NCBI GenBank assembly: GCA_000934665.2
Contig: KZ538502.1
Coordinates: forward strand, 45,847 to 65,846
Source: Catajapyx aquilonaris
Lineage: Eukaryota
DNA: 20,000 bases
Direction of reading: 5' to 3'
Part shown: in pieces, positions 8,063-20,000 of the stretch
Layout of the letters: every line of letters begins with the position of its first letter
How positions within the stretch are numbered: the first letter of the stretch is position 1
Position numbers and translations under genes: made by a program
Notes under the pieces: generated by a model
What the model was told of the DNA's origin: nothing
The model's input: only the letters and a program-made list of their open reading frames with translations
The model's database searches: none

Positions 8063-9176
8063 CTCACTGGCACCTCCCTAACAGATGCTGATATGAACCA
8101 ATGTACACTATGGAGTGGAGTTTGGGATCACGTGAAGTTAGGGAGGAAGCCAAGTCAACACGCCACTCGCACATATATCTCTCTCTTCAACAAGCTCACT
8201 AAATTTTGTGGAAATGAATGTGAAAGAGAATGATGGAGTGAGCGCAGTTCCAGGTTTATCTTGCCTTTTTTTTTTGCTCCGACTATAAAGTGCATGTGAA
8301 ATCCATATCCACATCCAACAGGTTGCTTTTTTTTGCATACATGGACAAACCAAACTGCAATTGCCTTGACTAGAACCTGGTCCAAGCCTCAACTAATGAA
8401 CAAAAGTGAAAAAGGAAAAATGGTCCCAAACAGTTCCCATATTTTACAAGCATTAAAATGACGAGATCTCAGGTGTGTGGCCAATGTGAATCTCTGCTTC
8501 CCAAAGCTTCCCACTTTTTCCCTTATATCAACAAAGTGTTTCTGAATGATGAGGTAGGTTAGATTCAATATTACGTAAGCTTTTTGTAGGCACAGTTATG
8601 TTGCACTTGGAAAAGCAATTAAATCTTATGCAAAGGACCCCCATTAAAACTTCACCGAATACATACGATACATCGCATATGGAAAAAAAAAGGTTGGGCA
8701 ATTAGAGGACACTCAAATGTGTAGTACAAGTTGACAAAAAAGGTGACACATGACTGAGAACACAGGGTAAGAATATAGCACTGAGCACTCAGTCCAACCG
8801 TGTATAGGATGGCAGTAGGGATGACAAATATACCTGAAAATAACTGCCTTTTGAGCATGGAAATCGATACAAACATGTCAGACCGAAGTGCACAGTCAAC
8901 AAGGATGTCACTAAAATAAGGCAGTAATCAAGACCTGGGCAATATATATCCGCATGAAAAAGCACAGACGGTAAACAAGAAGAAATCAATAGCAAAGTGG
9001 GCCTATTACCATCCCTACCATACAGAGAAGGAAAGAGGATACAACAGAAGGGAACATTTCTGTTACTTCAGAACAACTTTGGTGGGCCAAATCAAAGCAG
9101 TTAAAAGAATCACTTTGGGTGGCAACAAAATAATGTTCATCACTGCAGGCTTATTCTAGGAGGAGCCAACAGCCAA

Positions 9177-11037
9177 TCAGAGGGACTTGCGAGTCCGGGT
9201 GGGCAGATAATCCACCTTCACAAGTATCTGCGACTTTGCTTGTCTTGGAAACTCTCGTCTGTGGATGGTGGATATCTCGCTTGGCGGAGAGGAAGGTGAT
9301 TCATTACTGGTCCGTTCCTCATGGTCGTCTTTTCCCTCTGACCTGCCCACACTTGCACTTTCAACTGGCTCTGCAATTGAGATGGGTGGCTTCTTCCTCT
9401 GCCTGGGCTTGTCTCTAGGCCACCCAGTCATGTTACGTTTCCTCTTCTTTGCACGTCTGAAAGGAGTCACTGTTGAGTCGGCCTCTGACGTAGTGCTCGT
9501 CACATCAGATCCTGCTCCGTTGTCACAAGTACCACTAACTGCGCCCTCCACCTTTTCCAGACAAGCACATGAACTAAATTCGCTCACCATGCTCACTACG
9601 TCTGGCTCACAAAATGTCACTGGATTAGGTGTTGGTCTCTTGAACTTCCTAGGTCGACCTCTAGTGGGAGTGGTCTTGACACTAGGTCCCAATCCAACCT
9701 CTAATCCAGCTGCACGAATATCCTCCTCATTAGCAACACCACCCACACCTTTAAGGTATGCCTCAAGGTCACCATCAGCTGACTCGAGAGCTGCCAGCCT
9801 CTGCCTTGAAATGCCCATCAGCAGTGCCAAAGTGGAGGCATGGCAACGAGGTGATTTGCGTGGCAATGATGAACTGGACTTTGACTTCCGTCGTCCTGGA
9901 CCAACTTTAGGATAGATCAAGTCCTGGGGAAGCTCATATGGGAGGAGGAAGTGCGGCTTCTCCTCCTTTGCATCAGGAACTGAGTTTGCAACATCACCAT
10001 TGTCTTGCCGCTGGTATGTCCTGAACCAGGGCTCTCCAACTGGGACACTCTCAAAACTAAACTTGAGTCGGGACATCCACTCTGGAAGATCTTGGTCTGG
10101 GTTGTCATTGGATTCCCGGCTCTCCTCATCTGTTAATGAAGCACGGCGATGGATCCTATGGGTTGAACGAAGCTTGGACGACAGGATCTCAAACTTGTAG
10201 TACTCATGGTTGTCTGATATAAGTCGCACTTCACAACTGCGTCTCCTCTTTTGCTTTGCCTCCTCCGAGTCGTCATCATCAGCCTCTGCCTCTGACTGAC
10301 CCCCCTTCTCTGAGGGACTTGCATCTTTGCCTTTTAATTCTTCATCACCCTCGACAAGTTCTGATTCCGCTTCAAGTCCAGCCTCTTTCGCCCCAAATCC
10401 CATCTCTTCTTTAAGGCCCCCTCCTTTCCCTTCCCTACGCTTCTCTTTCTCTGAAAGCACTGCTTCTTTTTCACCAGGCTCCTCTTCACTGTCCTCCTCG
10501 TCACTGGAATCTTGCTCACCAAACAAGAACACTTCTGCCTCACTCAAGCACATCTGCGAAGCATTCCTCCTCACCTTAACCCGCCTCCTCTTCAAGCTAT
10601 CACCATTCACATGCTGCCTGCTTGAACGCAACTTTGAGGGAAGCACTTCCACTTTGTAGTACTGCTCATTGTCTCTCAGAAATTTCTCGTCACCGGCCAC
10701 CTTTCGACGCTTCTGCTGGCAATCACGCTTTAGGAACTCGATGGATGCGAGCCCATTGCTCACTGCACTTAAGGCACTCTTGCTGGATGCCAGGTTGTTG
10801 TTGTTCGTCGATACCATTCCGCTGACTGTCCGTCTTCGTTGGCCATTGAATGTTCCTTCCACAAGCACTGGTCGTTTTTCCTTGGCAGGGTAACTGTTTG
10901 TCCATGTGGCCGAAGGGGCAATGCGTTGATCCCCATAGGTAGTTCCGTTGCGGAGTGTCAGTCCCTTCTTGATTTGAGGTTCTGAGTAAACTCTGGCACT
11001 TCGGAGGCAACGTCGTACTGGCTCCTCCTCACTATTT
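9177..11037 (-). CDS. chif: chiffon terminal exon (619 aa): Chiffon-type C-terminal region with AT-hook
   Basis: Acceptor ttttcttctcgtccag (phase 2). Blocks FSFESVPVGEPWFRTYQRQD, LLPYE, PRKSPRCHASTLALL, AT-hook TRGRPRK (~9645-9665) and KRNMTGWP resemble insect Chiffon C-termini as recalled. Confidence 0.88.
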
Positions 11038-14000
11038 CTGGACGAGAAGAAAATCTTTGTAACCAACTCAACGAGATGATTTATAAATCAGAATGAATTA
11101 GAACTTGTATGCTATTATTTATTAAGTAAAACTAATAGTGGCATTCTCTGTCAATCATCATTACTAATACATCACAATTACCAAAATGTGAATATTAGTG
11201 TCAGGAAATCACACAAAAGCATGGCAAGGCATGTAACAGGAATTTATGTCCTAGGTGAATNNNNNNNNNNNNNNNNNCCCCCCCCCCCCCAATCCAAATT
11301 GGATATATTTTGAGTTAATCTCACATGCCTCTGCATGTACAGTATTTGTGCAGCTTATGCCCCAAACCCACTTGTCTTTCCCCTGAGTAAAGAGCAACAA
11401 TTAATCATCAGCCAGAAATGGTTAAGATATTTTGAGAAGCAACTTCTCTGAAATTGGGGACATGTTCTCCTAGTTTCACATACACTGCAGTACCCTTTTC
11501 ACTGCTTATGTAATGACAGCAGTTTTAAAAGAGATTAAGACACTTAAAACAGCCCCCAACTTTTGTGTAAAAAGTAAGATCTACATTCGATAATTCTGGA
11601 AATGTGAACCAAAGCCAAATTCTAAGTCAAATAAATTTTTATGAAGTAGAACTTCACACTGTCAATAATTATGTGAAACAGGCCTACATGGCTGAACATC
11701 AATAAAGCACAATGGTAAACATTCAGAGCAGCTCATCAGTTTCATCATGCTGAGCATGCATTGTCCCAGTTAACTTCTACATTAGTATGGGTATTCAACC
11801 TTCCTCGCTTCAACAGAATTTACCCTGAAATAATCTTCCAAAGTTGTTCCTAACATCACCGACTCAAGGGAAGTGTGGAATATTGATAAGCATGACAACT
11901 ATCTACGGCTGGTTTCATTAGTTACAACAATCACTTTACCAATCATTGACCAATCCAACCATACGGAACTGATATAATGATTTGGTGTTTTTTCTGATCA
12001 TGCGAGTCAGTTGCTATCACAGAAGGTACCCCCCACAACTTTAACTTTACAAGTCCCAAAAAAGAAATAACAAAAATGCATTGGAAACTGATATATTTTT
12101 GCCTGACTACCATTGGTGGCAGATAAGACCTTAACAATGATATTTTCCATGTACCAATACTGACACTTCATCTATGGTAACATGAATTATGCCTTGAAAG
12201 TCAAAGTAATTACAAAAAAACAGCAATAAAGGGATAAAGAAGTGAAAAGCCAAAGCTGCATGCAAGCAGGAAAATAAAATTGCAACACACGCCCACGAAA
12301 CAAGTTCAACATCTCATTCAAATTCCACAATTGCATGTTAAAGAAGATGGGTAGGTTATTAACAATCTTCTGTACAGAGATTTCAAATCAGGATGGAAAG
12401 TTGTGTTGCCATTTTACCCTCAGATACGCTAACTACAATACCATAAGTATAACCTTTAAACAAAACTTACATCTATCATTAGGGATAAGCAAAATAAAAA
12501 TGTGAATTGATAAAACAGGTAATTTACTGCATGATAAACTGAGGGAGACGATTTCCAGTCAACTCCAGTGGATGCATTCGTCTTCCAGATCTCAACTCCC
12601 AACGCATGTCCTCCTTTCTCTCACTCCCTCTCTTTCTCTCCCTCTCGCCCTGCCTTTTGACTTTGCTTTTGTTTACAAGTGAGGGTGACCGTGTCTCACT
12701 GGAACCCCGGAACTGTAAACACAGGCATGTTGTTGGGTTATTAAAGGGGGGGAAGGTGAGGTGCCAAAAGGTGCAAATAGAAACAACAATAATTTTGAGT
12801 CAAGGAAATACTGGTCATTCTAGTTAACGTCACACTAAATACCTCCAATGTACTCTCAATTTATCTCTCATTACTCCTAATAATCCAATCATTAAATTAG
12901 TTCAACGCAAGAAATGACTAATGCAACACATACTTTCATCCTACACTAAAGAAGACATGCTCATCAAGAGCAATATTTTATTTTGGTGCATCAGACTTCC
13001 AATGCGACAAACTTGTGCATTTCCCATGCCCCCATTTATAGAAGAACGTGCAGAATAAGGAAACAACACACCAAGGTATATTAAATTAAAGCTTCCAGCT
13101 AAATTAAAACAACAAAGCCACAAAACTCTTCTCCTGATTCATCCTATCAGGCTACCTTCGAAACAAAACTCACCTGGAAATGGATCCTTTGAACACTTGC
13201 AGCCCCACATCCTTTCCATTCCCTTCCTTAATGAGACGATCCAGCTCCTCGTAGTTTCTTTCGTCACTCACAAAGCGAAGGTGTAGCTCACACTTGAGAT
13301 GCTCTGCAAGGCTACGGTAAGTCACTCCACAAATTTCGCAATAGCTCCGCTTTGCTGCCTGCACGTTGGCCACCGACACCTGCCGTTGCTGCCGTTGCAG
13401 TTGCTCCTGGTGTTGGTGGCGTCCTTGCTGCCTTGGCGACTTTTTGATGTTGGTAATTCTCTTCTTCCGCTCGGTTACTTGGTTGGCGTCCTCAAACGGT
13501 GAGCTAAGTGACCCAGTCCTCACACGCAGGACAGGCCAACGAACAAGCTCTCTGTAAATTGGTATCTCCTCACAGTCCTCAACCTGTACAAAAAAATATT
13601 AACTTAATGATTATTGTGAATGAGACTAATGAAACCAGATATAATTATCCAAGGAAATGTGTCTTGGCCCTCCGTACCAACATCAGCAAAACGTATGCAC
13701 CTTGTAATCAATATTGCCCTTGTGGTGCACATCATATACTTGCACATCATATACTTGGCTGAACACATCTCATGTTAGATACCCTAGCTATTAAAGACTA
13801 TCATTATTATTGCTAACTCAGCTGCTAATGAGCTTTTCCTCAGTAGGCATCTACTTTTTCTCCCAGGTAGGCACAGCATTTCCCCCCAATAAACACTACA
13901 CCCTTCCTTGGCATGAAATTTACTGAGGGTGTTTCACCAACTCACCAAATTCGATTTAAATTTTCTTCCTCCCTATGGAACATTACACTCACCTTAATGT

Positions 14001-17000
14001 ATGGCACGCTCAGACGTCGGACACTCACAACAGGCAAACGGCGGTTGGCGACAGTATCTGATTTTTGTGGTGATGGCAGTGCCGCCTTCTTCAACCCCGC
14101 AATGTACTCAACAGCCTTTTTAACAGACCATATCTCGGTGCCCCAGCGCTGGGCATTGGCTAGGACATCAGAGGTTCCACGCCTCTTGCTCCGTGCCTGG
14201 TCTAGCATAGCATCCACCCGGCTCCTCAGCTGGCGGACCCCTGCCCCACCATTGGCTCCTGACAAGATCCCTCTGGTTGCTGGGCGGGTAGGTGTAGCAG
14301 GAGAGGCATTGCCTCTCCCAACTGAAGTGCCGCTAAGGCGGCGCTGGTCAGTCACAATGATGTCTATGTCCTTGCTCAGAAATGCTTCAATCACCTGCAA
14401 TCATGACAACTAGCTCAGTCAAACTATAACACTGGTTATTAAGACCTACAGGCTGCAAATATTCCATTTCAATGAAGAAACCCAACTTAAATTCCCACCA
14501 TTTTTAAACATAAAAATACCTTATCATCAGTATTAATATAAAGCACAGGTTGTTGGTATGTCTGTCACGTCACACCTATTTAACCCACTTCCCGAGTCCC
14601 GAGAGCGCTGAAACTTGGCACGCCCATGTCTTACGTTTCGCTGATACCAGGAAAATTTGGCAACAAAGCGCTTTTATATTTTTAAAAAGGCGTGGGGGGC
14701 AATAATTGTCATTTTTGAGGGGAGTTATTTTTTAAAGTTATGAACAAATTTCCGTACTTTCGCGCACGTTCGTCGCCATACTGCATTGCTGCCCTGCTGT
14801 GTACACTGGTAGAGGAAGTTTCTATGTGGAACTCCACAAATCAATATCCTCTCAACAATATCTCAGGTTTCAAGATCCCATGGAGATGACACCATTCATA
14901 TAGGCGGCCTGCCCTGACTTTGACCTTACGTCATCATTTTGTGTACCAACTCCTAGTCAAAGGAAATCTGCCAGAACGCACCCCTGGAACCTCACACTGT
15001 TCAAGTTTCCATGGAGATTCCCTCTTGCAACAATGGGAGTAAATTGAGTAAACACTGACAACAACAGAACCACGAATACCATTGAAAACCGCTGTTTACG
15101 TCCGCATTTACTCCCATTGTTGCAAGAGGGAATCTCCATGGAAACTTGAACAGTGTGAGGTTCCAGGGGTGCGTTCTGGCAGATTTCCTTTGACTAGGAG
15201 TTGGTACACAAAATGATGACGTAGGGTCAAAGTCAGGGCAGGACGCCTATATCACGATTTCATGTCGATGTCTCGCGCCTCTCTCTTTTACACTTCGTAT
15301 CACCGTAAATTCAATGCATCAATAATATATAAAGCCCCTCTCCGTGGATATAGGGGGCTATAGGAGGATAGAAAAGATCTTGCACTTCCCAACGTCGTAC
15401 AGTGCTGGGCATATTAGCCGTCGCTGAATTTTTTTTTTTCGGCGGCGGCGGCGCTGCCGTTACCTGGCAACCCTGTCCAGAGGGCCAATTCAAACATCAG
15501 CCCATGGAGAGCGCTTCCATTGTTGCCACTGTTTACAAATCGAGTGAGTGACCCCAAAATGACTTATTGCTTCTAACATCATTATTTTCCCTGTTTTCTC
15601 CTGCATATCCCTGCAGATACTGTGTAAGCAGGCAGAAGAGACCCGTCGCTGGGTTGTCCGCGTCACTCACTCGATTTGTAAACAGTGGCAACAATGGAAG
15701 CGCTCTCCATGGGCTGATGTTTGAATTGGCCCGCTGGACAGGGTTGCCAGGTAACGCCGCCGCCGAAAAAAAACATTCAGCGACGGCTAATATGTCCAGC
15801 ACTGTACAGGGCTGGGAGTTGGCTCGTTTAAATATAAGAGCTGAACTCACATTAGAAACTCAAAAAGTTGTACTTACAGCCCCAAGTGACTCCAAATCTC
15901 TCGTCAGTGACCTGACATCAGCCTGGCCCTTCACGTCAAGGTAGTAATGCTTTCCTTTCAAAGGCTTCTTCTCAGGAGACTTTTTCACTGCAATGTTAAC
16001 AAGAACATTTTATTAATCAATTGTTTTCTTCATGTTTTCAGTTACAATGTCATGACAACAACATATTTCATTCAAACAAGGATGGGTCATAAGGGTCTTA
16101 ATTACTTGTAAAGTGGGCAACACTGGAAAGAGAACTTCTATCCTAATGCCAATGGGCAGACATTGCAGCTCAATCCTTCATGCACATTGACATTTGCTAC
16201 CAATGTCATCTAAATCCTTGTTACAACACCCCTTGCTATCTCTGGCTTTCACCTCTCAGGCTGAGCTGCAGTAATTATAAATACATTTTACGTTTCATAT
16301 AGGTTCCACACTACAAGGTCTTACGTGGGTGTACTTCCATGAATTAAGAACATGTTGTAGAATTATTCAAGGTGAGTTGTGCCTAACAGTCAATAAAATT
16401 GGTATACAAGATTTTAGAACTGCTTTCCAACCCATATGCATCTATGCCTGACTAGGTAGCTTGTCAACTACAGCCTTTTACCTACCAACCGGCGAGGCCT
16501 CTACTCTTTTTCACACAAGTAATAGTACCTTAAAATATCAAGCAGCTTTGTATGGTAATCACCAGATTACTTCAAGGTCAACTTTTGCAATAAGTCAAAA
16601 TGAACAGTGCCAGAAAACTGTCACCCAATTCCATTATGTGGTAAATTGTTGAAACCCAACCCAACACCCTTATAATAAGCCTACAAAAACTGCTAAGGGC
16701 AAGGCTGTTTCACGAATTCTATGGCAAGTGGGACAGGATATGCATGTTATGAAATTCACAAGTTGCGCAGTGATTGAGTGCCAGTTAAACGCTGAACCTG
16801 ATGGATTTATCGCAGATGGTAAGCAGGCGGCAATGGGGTTGCTATAGGCCTGCAATTCCACCTGCTCATCTCCCACTTCGCTCACCGAACATGTGAAGCA
16901 GCCTCCGTCCGCAAGCGTACTCCGACAATGAACCTCACCTCTATCTCCTTCCTTGAGTCGTACCCACTTCCCATTCACCTTCTGCTTCTTGGAGGGCGAA

Positions 17001-17005
17001 ACCAT
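9177..17005 (-). CDS. chif: Chiffon / DBF4 (Cdc7 activator) with long C-terminal extension
   Basis: Exons: 16939-17005 (MVSPSKKQK..., in-frame TGA upstream), 15878-15987 (PLKGKHYYLDV...LESLGA, motif N), 13993-14394 (VIEAFLSKDIDIIVT...LANAQRWGTEIW...PYIK), 13174-13583 (VEDCEEIPIYRELVRWP, motif M; YCEICGVTYRSLAEHLKCELH, motif C zinc finger), optional 12528-12698/12712, and terminal 9177-11037. All phases join, giving 949 aa without the optional exon. Confidence 0.92.
11261..11277. other. Assembly gap (17 N) followed by poly-C
   Basis: Run of N characters in a chiffon intron. Confidence 0.99.
12528..12712 (-). CDS. chif: Putative optional chiffon exon with two acceptors (12712 and 12698)
   Basis: Purine-rich open frame FRGSSETRSPSLVNKSKVKRQGERERKRGSERKEDMRWELRSGRRMHPLELTGNRLPQFIM. 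Acceptors tgtgtttacag and ggttccag, donor CA|gtaaat. 12528-12698 is 171 nt, phase 2-2. Confidence 0.55.
13174..13583 (-). CDS. chif: chiffon/DBF4 exon: motif M and DBF4-type zinc finger
   Basis: Acceptor ttttttgtacag, donor gtgagt. C-x2-C-x9-H-x5-H finger in SYCEICGVTYRSLAEHLKCELHLRFV..ERNYEELDRLI. Confidence 0.93.
13993..14394 (-). CDS. chif: chiffon/DBF4 exon: second part of the BRCT-like motif N
   Basis: Acceptor attgcag, donor AAG|gtgagt. VIEAFLSKDIDIIVTD, SRVDAML, DVLANAQRWG. Confidence 0.9.
14528..14760 (+). repeat. Possible 5' part of a non-autonomous Helitron-like interspersed repeat
   Basis: Layout tattaatatataaa...gtatgtctgtc...gctgaaacttggcacg resembles arthropod Helitron-derived repeats from memory. 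No 3' hairpin or CTRR end was identified. Confidence 0.3.
14898..15252. mobile_element. Foldback/MITE-like element: 147-bp inverted repeats around a 61-bp spacer
   Basis: Arms 14898-15044 and 15106-15252, with 2 mismatches by eye. Ends are ATATAGGCG...CGCCTATAT (TA/TATA flanks). Confidence 0.88.
15400..15804. mobile_element. MITE with ~145-150-bp TIRs, CAGTG...CACTG ends and TA target-site duplication (Tc1/mariner-like signature)
   Basis: TA|CAGTGCTGG at 15398-15408 and CCAGCACTG|TA at 15796-15806. Arms 15400-15552 and 15662-15804 differ mainly in a (GGC)n/poly-T tract. Confidence 0.88.
15878..15987 (-). CDS. chif: chiffon/DBF4 exon: start of motif N (not in the ORF track)
   Basis: cattgcag|TG AAA AAG...GGG GCT|gtaagt translates to VKKSPEKKPLKGKHYYLDVKGQADVRSLTRDLESLGA. 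Confidence 0.9.
16939..17005 (-). CDS. chif: Probable first coding exon of chiffon (MVSPSKKQKVNGKWVRLKEGDR)
   Basis: ATG in AGGATGG context with an in-frame stop upstream. The phase-1 donor G|gtgagg matches the next exon. SPSKKQKV looks like a CDK site overlapping an NLS. Confidence 0.65.
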
Positions 17006-18488: not shown

Positions 18489-18802
18489 TTAAGCGGCTGG
18501 TGCGATGGCGTTTGGAGGGATGCCGCCTGCTTGTATGACGACGTGGAAGAACTCGTGGTCCTGCTGGTGGAATCCCAGCTTCTCTGGGGTGTCTTCGGGA
18601 GAGACGGGGGCGTCGTTGTACATTAGGAGGACGTAGGGGAGATCGATTCCCTGGAATTTACAACAGATGGGTTCAATGCACTAATTGGGAAAATGGGGGG
18701 AAATGTACGCACCGTCTGAAGGCAATACAACAGGAGGATCCAGCCGAACTTCGTGTCCTTCGCCATGTAGGCGTGTAGATGGTTGCTCTCGTCCAGAAAC
18801 AT
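18489..18802 (-). CDS. Divergent SUMO-like ubiquitin-fold protein with di-glycine motif; 5' exon not identified
   Basis: Exons 18713-18802 and 18489-18650 flank a 62-nt gtgcgt...ttccag intron and give MFLDESNHLHAYMAKDTKFGWILLLYCLQT|GIDLPYVLLMYNDAPVSPEDTPEKLGFHQQDHEFFHVVIQAGG-IPPNAIAPAA*. SUMO-like spacing of T, YC..G, DTP..LG and QxGG. Strong GC3 codon bias. Confidence 0.78.
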
Positions 18803-19783: not shown

Positions 19784-19850
19784 AATAATAATAATAATAA
19801 TAATATTAATAATAATAATAATAATGATAATAATAATAATAATAATGATG

Positions 19851-19906
<56 letters not shown>
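19784..19906. repeat. (AAT)n microsatellite, imperfect, about 120 bp
   Basis: Long aataataat tract with a few gat/att interruptions. Confidence 0.97.
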
Positions 19907-20000
19907 CTAATACATATTTCTAGACGTATGTCTGTCTCTCCTGTTATTCGCTATGCAAATCCGTACGGAGGCCCCGACATATACCCCAGGGGTTTCACTA

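Follow-up and report, generated by a model that had tools for sequence, protein, structure and literature searches.

The closest described system is the chiffon gene of Drosophila, which gives separate Chiffon-A and Chiffon-B products, the former activating the replication kinase Cdc7 and the latter nucleating a Gcn5 acetyltransferase complex, CHAT (Torres-Zelada et al. 2019, as cited in PMC9796610 and PMC8917357). In the sections of these two articles that deal with the gene, it is described as having a single coding exon (about 5 kb) and a single transcript (6.5 kb); tests of alternative splicing ruled it out as the explanation for the two proteins, and a translational mechanism is invoked, the nature of which is left open there. 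The interaction of Chiffon-B with Gcn5 was found only in Diptera, according to the relevant part of George et al. (2022, PMC9796610). No title among the matches listed in the literature on chiffon, Dbf4, and the CHAT complex concerned how chiffon is spliced in species other than Drosophila. In SR-protein genes, cassette exons that bring in a premature stop (poison exons) are known to be coupled to nonsense-mediated decay (NMD), and termination-reinitiation after long ORFs is known from the ORF1-spacer-ORF2 arrangement of human LINE-1 and from Drosophila stoned. In the TURBS type of reinitiation, as outlined for caliciviruses and influenza B virus in a passage of PMC10275272, the stop and start lie within about 20–30 nt of each other and an element complementary to 18S rRNA is present.

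The minus strand of the window, by which we mean the whole stretch of 20,000 nucleotides that was analyzed, carries a Dbf4/chiffon gene of six exons, four for the Dbf4 part followed by a 185-nt exon and a 1.86-kb terminal exon:

16939..17005, minus strand: coding part of exon 1, with the ATG at 17005; boundaries located, and the frame closes
15878..15987, minus strand: exon 2; boundaries located, the 15878>14394 junction being backed by a loose contig end
13993..14394, minus strand: exon 3, Dbf4 N-terminal/BRCT-like region, from a sub-threshold PF22437 match, BLAST, and the joint 13993>13583
13174..13583, minus strand: exon 4, motif M and DBF zinc finger (motif C), from PF07535 and contig cover; ends in phase 2
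12528..12712, minus strand: exon 5, an optional 185-nt cassette exon, with joints for inclusion and for skipping
9177..11037, minus strand: terminal exon with the chiffon-type C-terminal extension, from its open frame, homologues, and three contigs; stop at 9177–9179

The identification as a chiffon-type Dbf4, made in the preliminary description from the letters alone, is borne out by the zf-DBF domain and by chiffon homologues of the terminal exon. The domain (PF07535) is found in exon 4 with an E value of 5.1e-15 and 55.7 bits against a Pfam cut-off of 24.8, and motif M precedes this DBF4-type zinc finger (motif C), as in insect-type (class III) Dbf4. The DBF4_BRCT family (PF22437) matches exon 3 with an E value of 2.3e-4 and 22.5 bits, under its 27-bit cut-off, and residues 30–223 align in BLAST with the N-terminus of a fused chiffon, P0022 (E 1e-18). 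The loose contig end at 14394 (146 letters), once reverse-complemented, matches the end of exon 2 and supports the 15878>14394 junction; the coding sequence through the end of exon 4 is 989 nt, which gives phase 2. A HMMER search with exon 4 returned 116 relatives at E ≤ 0.001, and a search with the same exon for longer proteins found nothing. Twelve of the 110 relatives examined (the other six of the 116 were already in the set) are of at least 250 aa and end no more than 60 residues past the zinc finger; they were rejected as counterparts of a Dbf4-only protein, as they may be fungal-type or other Dbf4s, and the names of the eight that were looked up were uninformative.

The terminal exon contains the long C-terminal extension with the motifs common to insect chiffons and matches 19 proteins of 340–1084 aa and 77 of 1085–3095 aa, several of them named chiffon by their source; in 60 of the 77 the zinc-finger pattern lies upstream of the extension. 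Isopod and barnacle proteins are among these matches, which thus place the extension in crustaceans besides insects, and dipteran proteins are not. No close relative was found, the best matches having 39–43% identity over the motifs.

By sequence comparison, the intron that hosts the cassette exon is conserved, its position being shared with Hymenoptera, a beetle, and a damselfly. It starts here 36 residues after the second zinc-finger His. Of 16 Hymenoptera-like terminal-exon ORFs, 11 have the beginning of the shared part at +36 to +42, and both in isoform X5 of Anthonomus grandis and after the deletion in Ischnura X3 it is located at +36. Gene models of other arthropods break at or near this post-zinc-finger intron. 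Tail-only isoforms, which start in it or just after it, are annotated in two beetles, A. grandis (X5, with six unique residues before it joins at the same intron position) and Euwallacea fornicatus (a 731-aa form under two accessions), and a tail-only model of 1121 aa is present in Homalodisca vitripennis; in the isopod Armadillidium vulgare the gene is annotated as adjacent models of 341 and 1011 aa, the Dbf4-only model of 341 aa comparing with 342 aa here. It should be recognized, however, that these are annotation products, which may reflect an alternative promoter, a cassette exon, or an artefact, and that they have no sequence similarity to the exon described here. The 1243-aa isoforms of Bombus were set aside as tail-only candidates, being in fact C-terminal truncations that keep the zinc finger.

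The splice evidence comes from the contigs of one public run (X1), the only run holding the gene, the kind of which is unrecorded and which is taken as RNA solely because its contigs are spliced. The k-mer depth is about 4–6, and the 11 contigs aligned are all at least 99% identical to the window. Four joints are present, all GT..AG on the strand of the gene: the constitutive 13993>13583, the pair 13174>12712 and 12528>11037, by which the 185-nt exon is included, and 13174>11037, by which it is skipped. The exon is real and not a chance AG...GT pair, since spliced contigs carry its joints. The preliminary description had proposed that two acceptors 14 nt apart switch the gene between a fused protein and a stop-separated message. 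Its main elements were recovered, in that the exon is found in RNA, the stop-giving acceptor at 12712 is used, the donor is joined to the terminal exon, and a fused form exists through skipping; the joint 13174>12698 and the fused form that depends on it were not seen among the four joints of run X1. As contigs lose rare variants, a minor form of this kind is possible. With regard to the tandem acceptors, one AG (12712) alone is in use in the contigs of this single run, and the switch that is demonstrated is inclusion versus skipping rather than a choice between 12712 and 12698.

The contigs give neither isoform levels nor the phase of both exon 5 junctions on one molecule, and, because 13174>12712 and 12528>11037 lie on separate contigs, the dicistronic layout is inferred from unphased junctions. 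It is nevertheless very probable that mRNAs with a stop between the Dbf4 frame and the tail frame exist beside the fused mRNA. The junction depths of 4.7, 5.8, and 3.8 are unusable as levels, as their sum exceeds the exon-body depths (4.6 and 5.9) and they are hence biased. A reading with a 7-nt micro-exon was discarded, as none of the four joints matches it. Further contigs (12099–12370 and 12348–12557) abut the donor of exon 5 on the intron side and represent an unspliced form or an alternative 3′ end:

12099..12527, minus strand: intron stretch with RNA contigs abutting the donor

The second of these contigs reaches 30 letters into the exon, one under the number taken as bridging. An intronic poly(A) site near 12099 would be speculative. 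AATAAA and ATTAAA are absent from 12527–11900, just AAAATA and AATATA are present near 12099, and no loose A-tail was found among the listed contig ends. Contig cover is lacking over 11184–12093, most of intron 4, and intron 3, and nothing is concluded from these gaps. Arithmetic on the coverage bins fits the listed contigs together with one unlisted contig of roughly 230–250 nt within 12750–13003.

Retranslation of exon 5 and its neighbors reproduced the whole of the geometry that had been described earlier, with all elements at the same minus-strand coordinates and with products of 342, 646, 1006, and 949 aa. The elements within and beside the exon are the following:

12699..12700, minus strand: second AG, 14 nt downstream of the first (exon start 12698 rather than 12712); known from sequence and unseen in use, the frame that it opens being coding-like
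12673..12675, minus strand: TAA closing the 342-aa Dbf4-only frame of the 12712-spliced form, from translation
12608..12672, minus strand: 65-nt spacer, 88% purine (GA-rich) in a purine scan, a candidate splicing enhancer or restart leader
12605..12607, minus strand: first ATG after the stop, with G at −3 and C at +4, opening the 646-aa frame

Splicing to 12712 adds 13 residues to the Dbf4 part before the TAA, splicing to 12698 would add 57 residues and give the fused 1006-aa protein, and skipping gives the fused 949-aa protein. The ATGs at 12607 (65 nt past the stop), 12577, and 12532 share a frame that crosses the donor GCA/GTAAAT (12528), the weakest of the gene's five donors, into the terminal exon. 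The spacer is the most strand-purine-rich 65-mer of the window, equaled in 8 of 19854 windows of that size, all within 12605–12676.

How far these features exceed chance was gauged with 5000 dinucleotide shuffles and 3797 intronic 145-mers. The presence of some in-frame ATG open to the donor is unremarkable (34% of shuffles and 29% of intronic 145-mers); a first ATG that is in frame and open is found in 8.9% and 5.3%, respectively, and three or more ATGs that are all in frame in 1.9% of shuffles. The coding score of the exon is +23.7 bits in the extension frame versus −9.8 and +6.4 bits in the other frames, a value reached by 1.2% of composition-matched shuffles in the extension frame and by 5.2% for the best of three frames, so that translation in the extension frame would fit better than a pure 3′UTR. 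It should be noted that the bulk of this codon-usage signal (+20.5 bits) lies in 12697–12608, which is coding only via 12698. The spacing between the zinc finger and the first tail motif, tried as a test of the 57 residues, varies between 147 and 400 residues among 56 proteins and is uninformative.

Exon 5 is, as the joints show, an alternatively spliced cassette between the Dbf4 module and the extension. We consider it most probable, at about 0.58, that splicing in this way sets the ratio of extension-bearing Dbf4 to Dbf4 alone, and that the downstream cistron is poorly translated or not at all. Skipping joins both modules in frame to give the 949-aa fused protein, and inclusion via the upstream AG shifts the frame and brings in the stop 13 codons on. 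The first product of the included mRNA would then be a protein of 342 aa with complete M and zinc-finger motifs, a probable motif N, and no extension, which we infer is made and functional. The GA-rich tract is most likely a splicing enhancer that would offset the weak donor, and the extension frame on the included mRNA would be a downstream cistron of low translation. The low depth of the contigs, the predicted NMD discussed below, and the coding score of the extension frame are points that weigh against this explanation.

The last junction of the gene, 12528>11037, comes 145 nt after the TAA, about 2 kb of sequence follows the stop, and the included, fully spliced mRNA is for this reason a predicted NMD target, which may never allow the 342-aa protein to build up. 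Exon 5 falls among the PTC-introducing (AS-NMD) cassettes, whose stop precedes the last exon junction by more than 50 nt. The gene could be subject to unproductive splicing only, in which a poison exon tunes the level of full-length chiffon and the short protein and separate tail are immaterial. The length of the exon, which is not a multiple of three, its weak donor and purine-rich composition, which resemble those of regulated exons, and the failure of any homologue to align past the first few residues of the encoded peptide would all agree with this. We nevertheless regard it as unlikely, since the protein is cut exactly where the two modules meet, with the Dbf4 core left intact, the extension frame has a coding-like signal, and both the included junctions and the skipped one could be assembled from this low-depth run, which is not what an efficiently destroyed species would suggest, though contigs do not measure levels. 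If the 12698 AG were used in some tissue or stage, the exon would be read through and the 14-nt choice would be a genuine switch, and the frame from 12698, open across the whole exon and holding most of the coding signal, together with a pyrimidine share upstream of the second AG comparable with that of the first, is consistent with such a role. However, in 3′ splice-site scanning the AG that normally wins is the one met first downstream of the likely branch region, here the upstream AG; a GGGG run interrupts the tract ahead of the second AG, no homologue aligned with the 57 residues, and the joint is missing from the four of run X1, so that acceptor choice appears very improbable.

It is also doubtful, to about the same degree as unproductive splicing, that the included form is a true dicistronic message, in which the 342-aa Dbf4 ends at the TAA and the 646-aa tail restarts at ATG 12607 by 40S reinitiation or internal entry on the purine tract, splicing toggling between one fused and two separate proteins. 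The stop is followed by a first ATG that lies in the extension frame, is open to the donor, and has a purine at −3, all three ATGs share that frame, the spacer is a purine tract unique in the window, and the included junctions occur alongside the skipped one. Tail-only models in A. grandis, E. fornicatus, and Homalodisca and the split models of A. vulgare point the same way, although they may stem from alternative promoters or from longest-ORF annotation rules, and in Drosophila Chiffon-B is still made despite nonsense mutations in the A part, as reported in a section of PMC9796610. On the other hand, reinitiation is expected to be rare past an ORF of 342 codons, and TURBS, the known mechanism for long ORFs, has a much closer stop and start than the 65 nt found here (both from the portion of PMC10275272 cited above). 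Leaky scanning to the second cistron is excluded by the 12 ATGs in the first, and the spacer is not unusual in the predicted fold of the spliced region (unpaired share 0.50 versus 0.43 overall). Translation of the second frame is a proposal from the sequence, weakly favored by a few of its features and by the Drosophila precedent and disfavored by what is generally known of reinitiation. A working two-protein mRNA, in which the extension would be restarted in the purine tract or beyond it, at ATG 12607, could even represent an ancestral pancrustacean separation of Chiffon-A and Chiffon-B, from which Drosophila would have lost the intron and kept the internal start; this rather speculative possibility, which we consider slightly less probable again, is raised by the intron common to Hymenoptera, beetles, and damselflies and by the tail-only models in beetles, a leafhopper, and an isopod. 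If it were true, a single splicing choice would replace the fused replication/chromatin protein by two independent ones.

The locus bears on how two chiffon proteins are made, as it belongs to a relative in which the modules lie on separate exons and whose RNA includes, besides the fused form, one in which a stop, a 65-nt spacer, and a restart-ready ATG stand between them. It offers a natural system of defined sequence in which translation of the tail behind a finished Dbf4 frame could be examined, and it flags a conserved intron at which other arthropods may take the same decision. Should the second frame be silent, the gene would be an ordinary but tidy case in which splicing takes an entire functional module off Dbf4.

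In comparison with Drosophila chiffon, the gene is similar in combining a Dbf4 module (the M and zinc-finger motifs and, here, a probable motif N) with a long arthropod-type C-terminal extension and in having the break right after the zinc finger (about residues 400–500 in the fly), but its modules are on separate exons with an optional stop-bearing exon between them, whereas the fly gene has a single coding exon; also, two polypeptides are reported in the fly, and it is the mRNA layout alone that is seen here. TURBS, LINE-1, and stoned resemble the included form in having two long frames on one mRNA with a short spacer between them, but the spacer here is beyond the TURBS distance and the first frame differs from those of reinitiation systems in not being depleted of ATGs. 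The poison exons of SR-protein genes are like exon 5 in being optional, of non-triplet length, and purine-rich, with a weak splice site and an early stop that precedes the last junction by a long distance. Exon 5 is distinguished from them by a stop that lies exactly between two functional modules, leaving one intact, and by a long homologous second frame that begins 65 nt on, at the first available ATG.

As read from the sequence, the chiffon gene has six exons on the minus strand of the window:

Exon 1, from the ATG at 17005 to 16939, minus strand
Exon 2, 15987-15878, minus strand
Exon 3, 14394-13993, minus strand
Exon 4, 13583-13174, minus strand
Exon 5, the small cassette exon, 12712-12528, minus strand
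Terminal exon, from 11037, stop at 9177-9179, minus strand

Scripted joining of exon pieces cut from the window gives 989 nt of coding sequence in the four upstream exons, so that exon 4 ends in phase 2. Entry into exon 5 at the 12712 acceptor is computed to add 13 residues before a TAA at 12673-12675, yielding 342 aa; 65 nt past this stop, the ATG at 12607 opens a frame of 646 aa that runs via the donor GCA/GTAAAT into the terminal exon. With a second AG, 14 nt farther downstream (exon start 12698), the frame is fused and 1006 aa long; when the cassette exon is skipped, the fused frame has 949 aa. The preliminary description had given the same four lengths, phase, TAA and ATG, all of which are reproduced. 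The intron following the cassette exon contains a 17-N assembly gap (11263-11279) with a poly-G run before it, so its true length is not given by the window. Intron 2 holds two foldback (MITE-like) elements, 14898-15252 and 15387-15817, the first having 147-nt arms (99% complementary) separated by 61 nt, the second 104-nt arms (96%) nested within 52-nt arms (88%). Upstream of the gene are two short minus-strand exons ending in a Gly-Gly-type tail (18489-18802) and a long ATT/AAT trinucleotide microsatellite with a few interruptions (∼19790-19910).

Pfam places the DBF zinc finger in exon 4 (PF07535, E 5.1e-15) and gives exon 3 a weak hit to its Dbf4 BRCT model (22.5 bits, cut-off 27 bits); residues 30-223 align with the N terminus of a fused chiffon homologue (E 1e-18). 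The terminal exon matches no Pfam family; its homologues, 19 of 340-1084 aa and 77 of 1085-3095 aa, include thrips, bee, ant and weevil proteins named chiffon by their sources, together with isopod and barnacle proteins, and no dipteran protein is among these matches. Identity is only 25-43%, mostly within a few motifs, so there is no close relative in the databases searched. Since a zinc-finger pattern lies upstream of the extension in 60 of the 77 long homologues, the fused Dbf4-plus-extension protein is, judged by sequence, the form normally annotated for insects, and the Catajapyx gene is of that type.

The terminal exon was found in only one public run (word share 0.94; kind of run unrecorded), whose contigs were aligned to window positions 9000-14450; all 11 placed contigs match the window at 99% identity or more. 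Their alignment is interrupted by four gaps of intron size, each bounded by GT..AG on the strand of the gene:

13993>13583, minus strand, exon 3 to exon 4
13174>12712, minus strand, inclusion of the cassette exon
12528>11037, minus strand, inclusion of the cassette exon
13174>11037, minus strand, skipping of the cassette exon

A loose contig end at 14394 carries the sequence of the exon 2 end. The run, having spliced contigs, thus behaves as RNA, and the joints establish that the cassette exon is real, included in some RNA and skipped in other. Entry at 12712 puts the TAA in frame, and as the ambiguity of this joint is only 3 letters, it cannot be the 12698 site. We infer an mRNA with stop-separated Dbf4 and extension frames from the two exon 5 junctions, which lie on different contigs rather than on one molecule. 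The preliminary description had proposed that a choice between acceptors 12712 and 12698 toggles a fused protein and a dicistronic mRNA. A splice choice at the module boundary and the use of 12712 both hold, but the choice seen is inclusion versus skipping: 13174>12712, 12528>11037 and 13174>11037 are present, and 13174>12698 is not among the joints listed from this one run's contigs, which carry neither expression levels nor transcript ends and can lose rare variants.

Two further contigs (12348-12557 and 12099-12370) take in the final 30 nt of the exon, one short of the aligner's bridging criterion, and continue into the next intron, where cover extends 429 nt beyond the exon (12099-12527) and ends. 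By crossing the donor they hint at a form with the 12528 donor unused, and the stretch could be an alternative 3′ end yielding a Dbf4-only mRNA; no canonical poly(A) signal or A-tail was seen there in the sequence or the run contigs. In intron 4, depth bins at ∼12750-13003 require a further RNA contig, absent from the listing, some 230-250 nt long and unjoined to the cassette exon, which may be an intron fragment, a repeat or another transcript.

The host intron of the cassette exon begins 36 residues past the second zinc-finger His (His294), exon 4 ending within codon 330. Zinc fingers are absent (Pfam) from 15 of the 19 mid-length homologues. Of the 17 long homologues without one, 16 could be assigned a fused counterpart, and for 11 of those 16 the part in common starts 36-42 residues past that His; several have pyrimidine-tract-like translations ahead of it, as expected of putative ORFs called on terminal-exon genomic DNA. 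In Anthonomus grandis, RefSeq isoform X5 begins with six residues of its own and meets isoform X1 at +36; Ischnura elegans isoform X3 omits a block ending at +35, a Homalodisca model joins at about +30 after 79 unique residues, and Euwallacea fornicatus has a zinc-finger-less 731-aa form in two accessions. Armadillidium vulgare has 341-aa Dbf4-only and 1011-aa tail-only models at adjacent locus tags; the A. nasatum model is fused (1391 aa). These comparisons of annotation products, known as models and not as transcripts, show that the boundary between the modules and its intron are old, and that unfused models recur, with no mechanism indicated. Many insect chiffon isoforms (P0073, P0279, P0293, P0302, P0320, P0096 and P0288) have as their first residue a conserved internal Met (MLER...), corresponding to Met122 of the Catajapyx gene (the Met of AMLDQ); they lack the BRCT-like N motif and keep the zinc finger.

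The junctions show a splice switch at the chiffon module boundary. Skipping would give fused chiffon, whereas inclusion would give an mRNA whose first frame ends directly after the intact Dbf4 core, and the switch would set how much Dbf4 carries the extension. Of the five donors in the gene, that of the exon is the weakest (A at −1, A at +5). The 65-nt TAA-to-ATG spacer is 88% purine, a share reached by 8 of 19854 windows, all within 12605-12676, and is the most strand-asymmetric 65-mer in the window; it is not unusually unpaired in the fold of the spliced region. Control of the amount of extension-bearing Dbf4, with the purine tract helping to define the exon, is the most likely function (probability about 0.58). 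That inclusion is purely a decay switch is improbable. A genuine two-protein message with a candidate restart at 12607 is just as doubtful: it would suit the fly precedent, the unfused arthropod models and the ATGs past the stop, 3 of 3 of which are in the extension frame, but the first frame is 342 codons long and contains 12 ATGs, and the spacer is 65 nt. According to the available part of a termination-reinitiation review (PMC10275272), a longer first ORF reduces reinitiation, and viral long-ORF reinitiation requires a stop-to-start distance within about 20-30 nt. Among 5000 dinucleotide shuffles, 8.9% have their first ATG in frame and open as far as the donor; among 3797 intronic 145-mers the share is 5.3%, and about a third of either control has some open in-frame ATG.

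The 12712/12698 acceptor switch is very unlikely, its sole remaining support being a coding-like signal in the spacer. By a codon-usage score trained on the chiffon gene itself, the cassette exon reaches +23.7 bits in the extension frame (−9.8 and +6.4 in the other two), against a maximum of 3.8 over 369 intronic windows; 1.2% of composition-matched shuffles score as high in the same frame, and 5.2% do so in the best of their three frames. The bulk of the signal lies in 12697-12608, which would be coding only with entry at the 12698 acceptor, and the exon-encoded peptide aligns with no homologue past its first few residues.

Optional stop-bearing exons are common and the two products of chiffon are already known; what is new is the combination, a splice-level split of the two modules in a family whose one member studied so far was shown to make its two products without alternative splicing. 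The layout of stop, short spacer and first ATG in frame would permit separate making of the second module. Among the papers listed by the literature searches, none concerns splice-level module separation in chiffon outside Drosophila. In the available parts of George et al. 2022 (PMC9796610) and Torres-Zelada et al. 2022 (PMC8917357), the extension is termed insect-specific, with its Gcn5 interaction found only in Diptera, whereas clear homologues of it are present in an isopod (Armadillidium P0015, P0328 and P0329) and a barnacle (Amphibalanus P0016). As described there, Chiffon-A, the first 400 aa of the Drosophila protein, is enough for Cdc7, and Chiffon-B binds Gcn5; the entire coding sequence lies in one ∼5-kb exon of a single 6.5-kb transcript, and Chiffon-B is still made from nonsense alleles in the A part, by a translational mechanism that the authors call unknown. 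Alternative splicing is, in these accounts, not the explanation for the two Drosophila products, whereas in Catajapyx the modules are separable by splicing.
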